Positions 23,701-26,700 of a DNA stretch of 64,000 bases are shown here, piece after piece; the first letter of the stretch is position 1, and each line of letters starts with the position of its first letter. The stretch lies in assembly GCF_053078305.1 (NCBI RefSeq), contig NZ_CP166879.1; one strand, given 5' to 3'. Made by a program: the position numbers.

Positions 23701-26700
23701 CAGCGACCAGCGACCAGCGACCAGCGACCAGCGACCAGCGACCAGCGACCAGCGACCAGCGACCAGCGACCAGCGACCAGCGACCAGCGACCAGCGACCA
23801 GCGACCAGCGACCAGCGACCAGCGACCAGCGACCAGCGACCAGCGACCAGCGACCAGCGACCAGCGACCAGCGACCAGCGACCAGCGACCAGCGACCAGC
23901 GACCAGCGACCAGCGACCAGCGACCAGCGACCAGCGACCAGCGACCAGCGACCAGCGACCAGCGACCAGCGACCAGCGACCAGCGACCAGCGACCAGCGA
24001 CCAGCGACCAGCGACCAGCGACCAGCGACCAGCGACCAGCGACCAGCGACCAGCGACCAGCGACCAGCGACCAGCGACCAGCGACCAGCGACCAGCGACC
24101 AGCGACCAGCGACCAGCGACCAGCGACCGTAAATCAAGAAAGTCTGTAAAATCTGTTGAACCAGACATTGCCGACCGGGCTAACAGCTGGCTCAAATCTT
24201 ATGGACTTGATTACAAACTGGAGCAGGCACCACTTAACAACGAGATCGATAACGCACTGGATGCTTATTTTTCGAAAAATGGCGGCGCAGGCGGTAATCG
24301 TCCCGACGTAAAACTCCTTGTTCAGGACAAATACGGCAAGCAGTATCCCGTTCTCATCGAGTATAAAGGCTACAAGGACAGGCTTATCAGACTTGGCAGC
24401 AACGGTATTATTGAGAACAAAGATGCCAGAAAAGAATGGAATTTTAAAAATATTAATGGATACGCGGTGAATGGCGCAGTCCATTATGCCAACGCACTTC
24501 TTCAGTTCACCAATTACCCTGATATTATTGCTATTGGTATGACCGGCTGGCGCGATGATGATACAGGCGAACTGCATCATGAAATCGGCGTGTGGTACGT
24601 ATCAAAGAATAATTTAGGAGCCGGGCAGAAGGTTGGTGAATTCACCGACTTATCATTCCTTGCTGACAAAAATGTTGATGGATTTCTCAACAAGATAAAG
24701 CTGCTTAATCTTCCTCCCGAAGAACTGGAAAAAATCAAGGCCAGCAAAGAGGAAGAGATAGACACGCGACTTTCCCGTCTGAATAACGATATTTACCAGA
24801 ATGAAAAGGGGCTTGGTGAAAGCGATCGTGTTTACCTTGTTGTGGCTACCGTTATTGCAACGTTGGGGATTCCGGGAAAGTTAGCACCGCTGGATAAAAA
24901 AGAACTGACCTCTTCAACGGAGGAGGACTTGCGTGATGGTGATATTATTTTCAGGAAAATAAGGAATTTTTTAAGGCTGAAAGCTGTTCCTGAAACAAAA
25001 AGAGAAATGATTTTGCGCTCGTTGCAAAATACGCTGTGGACTGAAAACATTAACAAACCAGTCAACGGTGAAAGCCAGTTAAAGCGCGTGTTTGTTAAAG
25101 TTGTTGATGATCTTGGGGAGTATTACAAAATCGGACTGACCACCGATTTTACGGGCAAACTGTTTAATGAGATGTATCGCTGGCTTGGATTTACGCAGGA
25201 CAAACTCAATGACGTCGTTCTGACACCACCTTATGTTGCCACATTGCTGGCACGACTCGCCAGAGTAAACAAAGATTCCTATGTGTGGGATTTTGCTACA
25301 GGTTCTGCGGGATTGCTTGTGGCTGCAATGAATGAAATGCTCATTGACGCCAGAGAAAATATTCACTCACCGAATGAACTACAACTTAAGGAAGCGCAAA
25401 TCAAGGCTGAACAGCTTCTTGGCCTTGAGGTGTTATCCAGTATTTATATGCTGGCCATCCTGAATATGATTTTGATGGGGGATGGTAGCTCGAATATCCT
25501 CAATAAAGACTCGCTAGCCGATTTTGACGGCAAGTATGGATTTGGGAAAACAGGAGAAAAATTCCCTGCGGACGCATTTATTCTCAATCCTCCGTATTCA
25601 GCTAAAGGTAACGGCATGATTTTCGTGCAGAAGGCGCTGTCGATGATGGATAAAGGCTATGCTGCAGTGATTATCCAGAGTTCAGCCGGCACAGGAAAGG
25701 CTACGGAGTACAACAAAAAAATACTCAAGGAAAATACCTTGCTGGCAAGCATCAAAATGCCTGCGGATCTGTTTATTGGTAAATCAAGCGTTCAGACGTA
25801 CATTTACGTTTTTCAGGTAAAAATTCCGCATAACGCGAAACAGGCTGTTAAGTTTATCGACTTTTCCAATGACGGCTATGCTCGCTCTAATCGCAAAAAG
25901 GCAAGAAACAATCTTGTTGATGCCGATCGTGCAAAAGAGCGTTATCAGGAGGTTGTGGATCTGGTTCACTTCGGGAAAGGTTGCCTTAATATCTTTACGG
26001 AGGATGAATATTTTGAGGGAACAATCGATCCTGATAGTGGTGAGGACTGGAATCAGACTAGGCCAGTAGATACCAGACCGACACTGGAGGATTTTAAAAA
26101 GACGGTTGGCGACTATCTTGCGTGGGAGGTGTCAAAACTTCTTCAGGGGCGTGATGCGTCAGAAAAAAAGCAGTAAACTCCCGTCTTGCAGAGCTTGAGC
26201 GGGAGTTTATTAAATCTGGTGGTAAATGGGAAGAATACACAATCGAAAGATTGTTCAGTATTCAGACACCTAAAAAGAAATTTAATGCCAATAAATTAAC
26301 ATTTAATGGCAACTATCCTTATGTTGCCAGAGGAAGTAACAATAACGGCATAAAAGGATATATAGATGAAGATGAATTATATCTCAACCCGGGGAATACA
26401 ATTAGCTTTGGTCAGGATACTGCGACTATGTTCTATCAGGAAAACGCATATTTCACAGGTGATAAAATAAAGATTTTTTCTCTCAGGCATGGAGAGTTAA
26501 ATTCGCGAATTGCTTTTTTTCTTATATCAGCAATGAAAAAATCTTTTTCAACGTTTAGTTGGGGGAGTAGCTCTTTTAATGAGAATGTTCTCAATAAGGT
26601 AAAGATAAATATACCTACGTTTAATAATGTTCCTGCATATAATTATATGGTAAAGTATATAGAAGAGCTGGAAGCGGCCCATATAGAAGAGCTGGAAGCG

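Follow-up and report, generated by a model that had tools for sequence, protein, structure and literature searches.

The question raised by this locus is how a specificity (S) gene that lies directly behind its RM gene, in the -1 frame and with no evident initiation signal of its own, comes to be translated. We analyzed the surrounding stretch of 64,000 nucleotides (the window) together with related loci, and consider it probable, judging from the sequence, that the RM gene of this BcgI-like (Type IIB) restriction-modification system of a lambdoid prophage carries a programmed -1 ribosomal frameshift cassette at its 3' end. A dnaX-like -1 frameshift that yields both RM and an RM-S fusion appears to be the best reading of the junction and is strongly supported by comparison with its relatives.

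The RM gene sits in the late region of the prophage. If ATG 23276 is its start, the product has 966 aa and 107.5 kDa and ends in ...SEKKQ; the translation contains NRPDVKLL...IEYKG and NPPY, and the protein is predicted to combine, like BcgI-like Type IIB enzymes, a PD-(D/E)xK nuclease and an N6-adenine methyltransferase (NPPY) in one polypeptide. It matches Pfam N6_Mtase and, among the PADLOC profiles, REase_MTase_IIG PDLC03616 (E 1.4e-230, residues 1-649 of the 658-aa query, window 24200-26173) as well as a profile of 637 positions (E 1.8e-44). In NCBIfam, RM gave weak sub-threshold hsdM/MAD2 matches alone and S gave none, and phmmer searches with both against PDB sequences returned no match at an E-value of 0.001, or of 0.01, or better. 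In the S frame, a linker (AVNSRLAELEREFIKSGG) precedes TRD1, which is joined to TRD2 through a central helix containing 24-nt repeats; a C-terminal helix follows. Its match to PADLOC Specificity_II PDLC03591 (E 5e-19, residues 20-364) and its homologs identify it as the specificity component of a BcgI-like system, with two TRDs and two conserved helices; the homologs carry PF01420, and the UniProt name of one of them (P0008) is BgcI beta subunit. Homologs of the S linker run uninterrupted through the natural fusions P0001, P0014 and P0126.

Features of the RM/S junction in the window
Feature	Position	Strand	Basis or remark
RM gene, zero frame	23276..26176	+	ORF list and translation; N-terminal PD-(D/E)xK-like nuclease region and N6-adenine methyltransferase
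Candidate weak SD-like stimulator AGGGG	26145..26149	+	14 nt 5' of the heptamer; read from the sequence
Slippery heptamer A_AAA_AAG	26164-26170	+	in the zero frame of ORF 23276..26176; register for tandem -1 slippage
S (specificity) frame	26170..27360	+	translation; would be entered in the -1 frame after a slip
Stimulatory RNA hairpin (predicted)	26172..26211	+	RNA folding; includes A-U/G-U extensions beyond the core
RM stop TAA	26174-26176	+	one codon past the heptamer; the -1 frame reads gTA-AAc (Val-Asn)

The zero frame of the RM gene closes with gaA_AAA_AAG-cag-TAA, the whole junction being cgt gat gcg tca gaA AAA AAG cag TAA actcccg tcttgcagagcttgag cgggagtt with an A7 run at 26163-26169. 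RM and S are split by the stop codon and by the change to the -1 frame, and do not form one ORF as in single-chain RMS proteins. In the -1 frame, a TGA at 26152-26154 is followed by ~401 open codons (26155 to 27360), which encode the S domain; the frame contains no ATG, GTG or TTG from 26155 until TTG 26251. There is no canonical S start with an SD beside the RM stop, as in EcoKI-type coupling, and a promoter and terminator scan found neither a promoter upstream of S nor a terminator at the RM/S junction. Three features of programmed -1 sites are present in the window: an X_XXY_YYZ heptamer in zero-frame register, a -1 frame free of stops at the heptamer that leads on into a long coding region with homologs, and a stable RNA structure 5-9 nt past the heptamer (core stem at 5 nt). 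A -1 slip would give the transframe peptide ...RDASEKK-AVNSRLAELEREFIKSGGKWEEYTIERLF, in which the translation places the junction within SEKKAVNSR... (DASEKK|AVNSRLAE), and a predicted product of 1361 aa and 152.6 kDa. The position of the heptamer, the 5-nt spacing and the coordinates of stem and loop had all been proposed in a sequence-only reading and agree with the sequence, while the -1 frame open from 26155 and the peptide RDASEKK-, which it had likewise predicted, were confirmed by translation.

In the model that we infer, which covers slippage itself, its efficiency and the assembly of the products, a ribosome on RM would reach AAA-AAG with two tRNA-Lys on A_AAA_AAG and with the hairpin 5 nt 3' at its mRNA entrance, and a fraction of the ribosomes would slip back by one base at the heptamer. 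Those that do not slip would read one more codon and stop at TAA, releasing free RM, while those that slip would read on through AVNSRLAELEREF... and translate the complete specificity domain, so that an RM-S fusion of ~153 kDa results. As S has no initiation signal of its own, the fusion would probably be its only or main source.

The core stem of the hairpin comprises 8 bp (aactcccg, 26176-26183, with cgggagtt, 26200-26207), encloses a loop of 16 nt and begins 5 nt past the heptamer. Folded as RNA, 26171-26215 forms this hairpin with an MFE of -20.3 kcal/mol; shuffled versions of the same segment have a mean of -7.25 (sd 2.36), corresponding to z = -5.53, and none of 200 folds as well. The folding energy, to which the sequence-only reading had pointed as a check, therefore speaks for a stable structure. 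When 26050-26350 was scanned against Rfam (E up to 10), the sole match was His_leader, by chance (13 bits against a gathering score of 49), indicating that the junction element is not a described RNA family.

The comparison was based on 85 non-duplicate loci, namely 80 from a genome scan plus the window, two E. coli prophages, a Salmonella prophage and a Haemophilus locus. According to the record titles, the 80 scanned loci come from Bacillota, Gamma- and Betaproteobacteria, Campylobacterota, Bacteroidota, Spirochaetota, Patescibacteria, Fusobacteriota and others. All 85 are linked by descent and horizontal transfer, and the counts given here are not counts of independent events. An in-register X_XXA_AAR heptamer is found 0-1 codons before the RM stop in 83 of the 85 loci (GGGAAAA in 56, GGGAAAG in 17, AAAAAAA in 7 and AAAAAAG in 3), the stop following directly in 79 loci and after one codon in 4. 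At all other codon positions of the homologous RM ORFs, the four heptamer types occur in register at 85 of 54,553 (0.16%), and the concentration before the stop is therefore more than chance. The stop codon itself varies (TAG in 47 loci, TAA in 28, TGA in 10), as do the preceding codons, and a long downstream ORF lies in the -1 frame in all but one of the 85 loci. A_AAA_AAG is invariant in all 6 distinct junctions of the window type; the sister E. coli prophage allele (L004) and the Haemophilus locus (L007) have G_GGA_AAG. In addition, an SD-like 4-mer (GAGG/GGAG/AGGA) is located 9-12 nt 5' of the heptamer in 61 of 83 loci (73%), compared to 11.6% in controls. The window has no clear SD-like stimulator at 10 nt, just AGGGG at 14 nt, and of the window-type relatives the Salmonella locus and L093 show GGAG 10 nt upstream.

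PGAP annotates S from TTG 26251, or in some records from ATT 26209 (giving MKSGGKWEEY). They would fit a separate S made by termination-reinitiation at one of these weak or non-canonical codons, the ribosome that stops at TAA 26174 melting the hairpin, and heptamer and hairpin being incidental or serving coupling only; we regard this as unlikely. Neither codon is conserved even within the window subfamily, whose other members have GTA, GAA or AAG at the site of the ATT; the conserved Leu position is occupied by TTA in L003. Near the ATT, the window offers a single SD-like sequence (GGGAG), which at a distance of 3 nt is paired within the 3' arm of the stem, and for both reasons ATT 26209 was rejected as a genuine start. 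Throughout the family the first ATG, GTG or TTG of the S frame has no fixed place, its position ranging from -133 to +461 nt and lying in several loci more than 100 codons into TRD1, and AAG-type heptamers place over the stop a GTA, which cannot initiate. Column entropy in the family alignment peaks, just past the stop, at the third positions of the S frame, indicating that coding constraint acts here already ahead of any start codon. Reinitiation finds its best footing in the Salmonella relative, which has an in-frame ATG in the hairpin loop, in the ATGA overlaps of 7 main-family loci, in distant relatives that clearly use SD + ATG coupling, and in EcoKI, whose hsdM and hsdS are translationally coupled (PMC3510504). 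The Salmonella locus, by its loop ATG, and the 7 loci with overlaps may indeed also, or instead, reinitiate. For the family as a whole, however, reinitiation leaves unexplained why four different sequences all fit X_XXA_AAR in the -1 register, and why the SD-like motif lies where it does, 16-18 nt from any putative start.

The hairpin provides further support for the frameshift. In 81 distinct junctions a hairpin lies ~5 nt past the heptamer (median MFE -18.7 kcal/mol, median z -4.7); that of the main family has the same position as in the window but a different sequence. In a gap-free alignment of 72 sequences the 12-bp helix is 98.1% paired, with compensatory double changes at five pairs; pair 21-43, for example, is UA in 36, CG in 14, UG in 12 and GC in 8. 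None of 500 shuffles reached the covariation score of this helix, and slid controls pair at 48.5% or less. The covarying sites are the synonymous third base of a Leu codon and the first base of a K/Q/E codon, and protein coding alone does therefore not explain the covariation. At least three unrelated stem sequences (window type, main type and L111) occupy the same position, and in L150 the stem pairs with a different 3' partner. The stem of the window type is invariant in 6 distinct relatives except for one C>U that keeps a G.U pair, while loop and flanks vary; within these 6 distinct junction sequences, with their single G.U change, no covariation was seen.

The A7 run suggests two further explanations, both of which dispense with ribosomal slippage. 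One of them, raised already in the sequence-only reading, takes A7 for a phase-variable switch that operates by mutation, or for a frameshift that became fixed in a gene once encoding RM-S as a single chain; the fusion would then be made by cells with A8, and the window would be in an OFF or decayed state. In-frame single-chain relatives do exist. At the corresponding position L091 carries A8 and its two frames are joined, in L018, with A6, the arrangement is broken, and the 5' end of the RM gene of the window has a true phase-variable repeat. The tract length is constant, however: A7 is found in 8 of 8 complete E. coli genomes with this type of junction and 4 of 4 IMG/VR contigs (a small sample). 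Over a stretch of 161 nt, 7 of these genomes do not differ at all and the eighth has the C>U in the stem, and 3 of the contigs are likewise identical at the junction, the fourth having one substitution in the codon after the heptamer. Moreover, the Salmonella locus has A6 and yet keeps the heptamer in register, the heptamer of 73 of the 85 loci is G_GGA_AAR, no homopolymer prone to mutation, S has retained complete ORFs of ~370-430 codons in different phyla, and the hairpin covaries, findings that decay would not lead one to expect. A second switch at A7 is disfavoured by the invariant tract and by the prevalence of G_GGA_AAR among the relatives, and decay of a once fused gene by the intact S ORFs, which makes this explanation as a whole very improbable. 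A pattern search of viral contigs with AAAAAAGNNNTAAACTCNCG gave 18 matches, 13 of them by chance in unrelated genes.

Efficient transcriptional slippage in bacteria usually requires runs of ~9 or more, and the runs of 7 in the window and 6 in Salmonella are below this length. The second explanation, that RNA polymerase adds an extra A on A7 and a fraction of the mRNAs encodes the same fusion in frame with no slip of the ribosome, is for this reason hardly to be expected here. Most relatives, with G_GGA_AAR, have only 3-4 A, and a conserved hairpin at 5 nt combined with an upstream SD-like motif points to stimulators of the ribosome and not of the polymerase. Runs of A are nevertheless known sites of transcriptional realignment (reviewed in PMC5009743).

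Two other solutions are found among the relatives. Natural RM-S fusions with the same linker exist as single ORFs, i.e. as single-chain RMS proteins (P0122 with 983 aa and 55% identity, P0145, P0179 and P0252), and many RM-half-S proteins also carry this linker as single-ORF fusions; the peptide just past the slip site of the window is thus a continuous linker in natural single-chain relatives. At the four fused junctions examined, hairpins are weak or absent (-7 to -14 kcal/mol). In the distant relatives L113-115 and L151-153 (at most 41% identity), S has an SD and an ATG, in the manner of EcoKI-type coupling, and there is neither heptamer nor hairpin. The metagenome fusions P0014, P0100 and P0029 do not serve as proof of working fusions; each of the loci concerned (L088, L089/L090 and L091) carries an unrelated frameshift or deletion inside RM, and L088, L089 and L091 are therefore not clean evidence. 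P0122/L110 and other full-length fusions from an exhaustive search were used in their place.

Within the clade, the homologs present the reverse of a strong S start without a slippery site, the pattern that the sequence-only reading had held to speak against itself: 83 of the 85 loci conserve the signal, comprising the heptamer, the -1 arrangement and the downstream hairpin, and the single-chain RM-S relatives for which it had suggested to look also exist. We observe the signal and its conservation, the covariation of the hairpin, the absence of a conserved S start and fused relatives that read through in frame, and these observations together support its proposal that a dnaX-like -1 frameshift would produce an RM-S fusion.

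In E. coli dnaX, a -1 frameshift makes tau and gamma (reviewed in PMC5009743). The window shares with dnaX the identical heptamer A_AAA_AAG and a stable hairpin a few nt 3' of it, and the main family shares with it an SD-like element ~10 nt upstream. In dnaX, two products of one gene co-assemble and the efficiency of the shift sets their ratio, which we propose for the window as well. However, the shifted ribosome in dnaX soon stops and its product is the shorter one, whereas in the window it would read an extra domain of ~396 aa, and in the window and its family, unlike in dnaX, it is the non-shifted ribosome that would stop 0-1 codons past the heptamer. The tail assembly chaperone G/GT of phage lambda is made by a -1 slip on G_GGA_AAG, the heptamer also of L004 and L007, and OrfA/OrfAB of the IS3 family (IS3/IS911) by a -1 slip on A_AAA_AAG. 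In both, a slip near the end of the upstream ORF gives a fusion with a downstream ORF that lacks a start of its own, as is proposed here. The lambda and IS3 proteins are unrelated to RM-S, and in lambda the shift does not depend on a strong structure and has an efficiency of a few percent, whereas a covarying 12-bp hairpin and an adjacent stop are conserved in the RM/S family.

Among restriction systems, EcoKI resembles the window in that the methylase ends, at its C-terminus, next to where S begins, in frames that differ by one base. It differs in that the ATG of S overlaps the hsdM stop, no slippery site or hairpin is described, and a separate ATP-dependent HsdR is used, while in the window the nuclease is fused to M. 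Its M-S fusion (MSFusion) is man-made and was active in vitro only when free M was added (PMC3510504), and a partial frameshift would supply exactly that mixture. BcgI is described as A2B (PMC3592470), and BsaXI as (RM)2S (PMC11997821). In the available sections of PMC3592470 and PMC11997821, these enzymes cleave on both sides of a bipartite site with (RM)2S stoichiometry, and the Type IIB class comprises split and single-chain architectures. BcgI and BsaXI share with the RM of the window an N-terminal PD-(D/E)xK nuclease, an N6-adenine methylase and a C-terminal helical tail, and with its S two TRDs. The window is formally split, with an S that has no start and would be reachable only through the RM frame, i.e. 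an intermediate third architecture, which the same sections of PMC3592470 and PMC11997821 do not mention.

One RM and one RM-S would reproduce the (RM)2S of BcgI/BsaXI-type enzymes. The efficiency of frameshifting would then set subunit stoichiometry, as dnaX frameshifting sets tau:gamma, and a 1:1 ratio of RM to RM-S would require an efficiency of ~50%. This idea about stoichiometry, which the sequence-only reading had put forward as a possibility, agrees with the need of the EcoKI M-S fusion for extra free M in vitro (PMC3510504).

We are inclined to extend this reading to the whole clade, which spans at least 10 bacterial phyla and prophages. Here S would be expressed only via a dnaX-like -1 frameshift, directed by a cassette of SD-like motif, X_XXA_AAR heptamer, adjacent stop and covarying hairpin, and the active enzyme would consist of one RM and one RM-S, in a ratio fixed translationally. 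To our knowledge, conserved -1 frameshifts in bacterial genes are rare outside IS elements, phage tail chaperones and dnaX. If true, the RM/S junction would be one of very few widespread bacterial -1 frameshifts outside mobile elements, phage tail genes and dnaX, and would add a large and phylogenetically broad recoding family with a complete cassette. In the literature searched, mostly outside subscription journals and including the GeneTack study, the Atkins 2016 review and the C-REase fusion paper, we found no description of frameshifting at an RM/S junction.

A third RM architecture, between RM+S and single-chain RMS, would give a simple answer to how an S domain with two TRDs obtains exactly two RM partners, as the engineered EcoKI fusion requires. 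It would also have consequences for annotation. The S genes are now annotated with arbitrary TTG, ATT, CTG or GTG starts, or as partial, and, if the frameshift is true, many hundreds of annotated 'S subunit' genes carry wrong starts; recognising it would fix the annotation of S and improve REBASE-style predictions. With ~60 nt the cassette is naturally modular and might be used for setting protein ratios. Finally, the true phase-variable repeat at the 5' end of the RM gene is a heptanucleotide repeat, and the expression of the locus would thus be layered, with a phase switch at this repeat in addition to the signal at the junction.

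The RM protein has an N6_Mtase domain match. With RM as query (24200-26173), the PADLOC profile REase_MTase_IIG matches along the whole query (E 1.4e-230) and so does a second profile, of 637 positions (E 1.8e-44), and the S frame matches Specificity_II (E 5e-19). Two motifs stand out in the RM translation, PD...E-x-K near the N-terminus (NRPDVKLL...IEYKG) and NPPY, and a Haemophilus S homolog is named 'BgcI subunit beta' in UniProt. The profile matches and the two motifs mark the locus as a predicted BcgI-like RM + S system. It resides in an E. coli lambdoid prophage, with Q antiterminator/hok on one side and lysis genes on the other. 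The slot (about 20400-32000) lies between Q antiterminator/hok and a SASA-family esterase plus the lysis genes, the position occupied by the stx genes in Stx phages, and therefore the RM-S pair is probably part of the late transcript. In L004, a sister allele frequently found in E. coli prophages, Ile/Arg/Arg tRNA genes follow immediately downstream. PhiR12_3 is one deposited phage with this system, where the products are annotated as hypothetical proteins.

The sequence-only reading had proposed a dnaX-like -1 frameshift signal at the junction of RM and S, and the heptamer, the stem, their spacing and the open -1 frame it described are all borne out by the sequence (table). After a TGA at 26152-26154 the -1 frame stays open as far as 27360, with TTG 26251 as its earliest ATG, GTG or TTG. 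Slippage would produce ...RDASEKK-AVNSRLAELEREFIKSGGKWEEYTIERLF.... RNA folding of 26171-26215 lengthened the helix to 26172-26211, with a minimum free energy of -20.3 kcal/mol compared to -7.25 ± 2.36 for shuffled sequences (z = -5.5), none of 200 shuffles being as stable. The sole SD-like motif here is AGGGG, 14 nt upstream of the heptamer. If translation starts at ATG 23276, the predicted products are RM of 966 aa (107.5 kDa) and RM-S of 1361 aa (152.6 kDa).

Features of the RM/S junction in the window
Feature	Position	Strand	Remarks
RM ORF	23276..26176	+	3' end ...cgt gat gcg tca gaA AAA AAG cag TAA
A-run	26163-26169	+	read from sequence
Heptamer A_AAA_AAG	26164-26170	+	zero frame of RM ORF
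RM stop TAA	26174-26176	+	zero frame
Stem	aactcccg 26176-26183 / cgggagtt 26200-26207	+	16-nt loop; begins 5 nt past heptamer

The same junction type was found in eight complete E. coli genomes, seven of which are identical across 161 nt; the eighth carries one C>U change in the stem, with pairing kept as G.U. IMG/VR contigs contain further identical copies and two variants. Six distinct junctions of this type were aligned, among them one from a Salmonella prophage and one from an E. coli allele of 85% identity. Heptamer, TAA and a 9-bp stem (AAACUCCCG/CGGGAGUUU) are invariant, and the codon between heptamer and stop (cag, cgg, ttg, cct), 9 of the 16 loop columns and the 3' flank vary. The Salmonella junction has an A6 run and nonetheless keeps the heptamer register. 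Window-type relatives (Salmonella, L093) have GGAG 10 nt upstream of the heptamer. In some records PGAP starts S at ATT 26209 (MKSGGKWEEY), where the other junctions have GTA, GAA or AAG; L003, another locus, has TTA in place of TTG 26251, and PGAP falls back on CTG there. L004 and the Haemophilus locus L007 read gcG_GGA_AAG-TAA or caG_GGA_AAG-TAA, a canonical heptamer that differs from that of the window in an identical register, and their S frames are also start-less (VNSPLSDKLRSVEWGEF and VINSRLQKLEEEF).

An alignment of the conserved RM C-terminus was scanned against one genome per species. This gave 80 loci, which according to the organism names on the records belong to Bacillota, Gamma- and Betaproteobacteria, Campylobacterota, Bacteroidota, Spirochaetota, Patescibacteria, Fusobacteriota, Lentisphaerota, Actinomycetota and others, and a total of 85 non-duplicate junctions together with the earlier loci. 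All but one have a long downstream ORF in the -1 frame. A heptamer of the form X_XXY_YYZ, in register, stands just before the RM stop in 83 of the 85, with a gap of 0 codons in 79 and 1 codon in 4 (GGGAAAA 56, GGGAAAG 17, AAAAAAA 7, AAAAAAG 3). In the rest of these RM ORFs the in-register frequency of the same four heptamers is 0.16% (85 of 54,553 codon positions). The stops (TAG 47, TAA 28, TGA 10) and the codons before them vary; what the junction conserves is slipperiness and not a given peptide. Three loci are irregular: in L078 (3660-3760) G_GGA_AAA is read through in the RM frame, with the shift site apparently relocated to an A_AAA_AAA run within what was the hairpin loop, Eubacterium minutum L018 (3660-3700) lacks one A (A6) and its arrangement is broken, and L057 (1270-1290) has the non-canonical gcG_GAA_AAG.

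An independent S start in the homologs would speak against frameshifting, and none is conserved among these loci, the earliest canonical start in the S frame being scattered from -133 to +461 nt. ATGA overlaps occur in only 7 loci, all with TGA stops, and at AAG-ending heptamers the codon spanning the RM stop is GTA. Reinitiation at weak starts may contribute to S synthesis where an ATG is present, as in Salmonella and the TGA-stop loci; the lack of a conserved start and the GTA over the stop in AAG-type loci rule it out as a general route.

The hairpin is likewise a family feature. In the 50 nt past the heptamer, 81 distinct junctions have a median folding energy of -18.7 kcal/mol (median z -4.7), the stem starting about 5 nt past the heptamer. 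For the main family, a gap-free alignment of 72 sequences shows a 12-bp helix that is 98.1% paired, whereas shifting the partners by 1-3 columns leaves no more than 48.5% paired. Five helix pairs are changed on both sides, e.g. pair 21-43 (UA 36, CG 14, UG 12, GC 8) and pair 13-51 (GC 50, UA 5, AU 3, GU 3), and the covariation score was matched by none of 500 shuffles. In the main covarying pair one partner is the synonymous third base of a Leu codon and the other opens the K/Q/E codon of V[KQE]WGE, so that coding alone provides no explanation. The stems of the window type, the main type and L111 (CCCCAGUGUACG/GUGCGCUGGGG, -23.4 kcal/mol) occupy an equal position and are unrelated in sequence, and L150 has the same 5' arm with another 3' partner. 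Of 83 loci, 61 have an SD-like 4-mer in the 20 nt before the heptamer, compared to 11.6% of control positions, and the spacers concentrate at 9-12 nt, as in dnaX.

The sequence-only reading had also considered an A7 tract acting as a phase-variable switch, or decay of a formerly fused gene. Neither fits: the tract is invariant, the heptamers are often not homopolymers, the S ORFs are intact and the stem covaries. Transcriptional slippage does not fit either, since the tracts have 3-7 A and the stimulators are of the ribosome type.

Right past the stop, column entropy peaks at S-frame third positions (0.86 vs 0.60 and 0.45 overall; in the loop 1.47 vs 1.00 and 0.62), and the post-slip peptide is a continuous linker in the single-ORF relatives P0001 (...KKDSPSRSSIVSQRIADLEREFKVSGGRFEEF), P0126 (...INFSNLQRLENEFKANGGEF) and P0029 (...KKTSPLNEKLNNVEWGEF). 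Both observations argue for translation of this stretch in the S frame, in agreement with the suggestion that the extension upstream of the annotated S start is translated. Single-chain homologs, which that reading had proposed to look for, do exist: the intact full-length fusions from an exhaustive search are P0122 (983 aa, aligned at 55% identity in a single stretch over query 47-1042), P0145 (1098 aa), P0179 and P0252, and many RM-half-S proteins of 800-920 aa turned up as well. The hairpins at four fused junctions are weak or absent (-7.1, -9.0, -13.2 and -13.8 kcal/mol). As three of the four fused loci folded have unrelated RM lesions, the viability of fusions was judged from P0122 (locus L110). 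These three, the metagenome loci L088 (about 2940-2950), L089/L090 (about 2940) and L091 (about 2990-3000), with M and S in frame, each have a 1-nt indel or deletion within RM and are thus probably decaying copies; L089/L090 are one sequence from two independent samples, with a half-S of a single TRD.

At lower identity of the RM C-terminus the junction becomes conventional. L113/114 (41%) have the SD GGGAG and an ATG within a TAATG overlap (L113 2150-2260), in L115 (37%) the SD is GGAG and the ATG comes 2 nt past the RM stop (4500-4600), and in L151-153 (33-34%) the SD is GAGGAGG, the ATG overlaps the stop and S is in the +1 frame. No heptamer was found at the RM stop of L113-115 and L151-153 and no junction hairpin in L113-115 and L151; L152/L153 have a fold of -20.1 kcal/mol past the stop. 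In L148/149 (43%) heptamer and nearby ATG occur together, with weak structure only. Heptamer with hairpin and SD with ATG are thus alternative solutions to one problem in the RM/S family. In the viral collection, at least 66% identity goes with the full cassette in every relative whose junction is readable as split; L140 reads through without a heptamer, and the L143 contig ends before a readable junction.

The conserved heptamer, the covarying hairpin and the lack of a conserved S start support a programmed -1 ribosomal frameshift as the most economical reading, and S is quite probably expressed here in this way. P- and A-site tRNAs would slip in tandem on X_XXA_AAR. The stimulators would be the hairpin, placed at the mRNA entrance, the stop codon next to the heptamer and, for most members, an upstream SD-like contact. 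A slippery site with an adjacent stop is a 'shifty stop' in the classical sense. Non-shifted ribosomes would yield free RM and shifted ones RM-S. BcgI is A2B (PMC3592470), BsaXI is (RM)2S (PMC11997821), and an engineered EcoKI M-S fusion cleaved DNA in vitro only with free M supplied (PMC3510504), so that one RM and one RM-S may form a complete enzyme. Frameshift efficiency would then set the RM : RM-S ratio, a rationale for which we consider the case evenly balanced. Frameshifting between RM and S genes is not described in the literature searched, an absence of evidence only given its incomplete coverage, and Rfam has no family matching the element. The mechanism itself is textbook; its use for a restriction-enzyme specificity domain and its breadth across phyla appear new.

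The RM 5' coding region contains a perfect 7-nt tandem repeat, GACCAGC x120.6 (100% matches, 23285-24128), just downstream of an SD (aaaGGAt) and ATG 23276, which codes for 40 copies of PATSDQR. Because the unit is not a multiple of 3, copy-number change switches the RM gene ON or OFF; the window array is currently set to ON. The first canonical start past the array is GTG 24467, use of which would drop the nuclease motif. In E. coli E2855 (L004) the same array, of about 31 copies, follows the same SD and ATG. A 24-nt repeat in S (x2.8, 26657-26723) encodes EELEAAHI in the central coiled coil, with 2-4 copies among E. coli alleles (P0003, P0004, P0006, P0009), and some alleles have a second 8-aa repeat, ADSRTRGL, in 1-3 copies. 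These recall the TAEL repeats of EcoR124I/II, which determine the length of the spacer in the recognition site. RefSeq annotation is inconsistent (L001 3955-4569, 4868-6577 and 6652-7779; L003 5523-6776; L004 5622-6734): RM is started at an internal GTG and so loses its nuclease domain, a 'YXWGXW repeat-containing protein' is annotated on the reverse strand over the 7-nt array, and S starts at TTG, ATT or CTG or is broken into partial pseudogenes.
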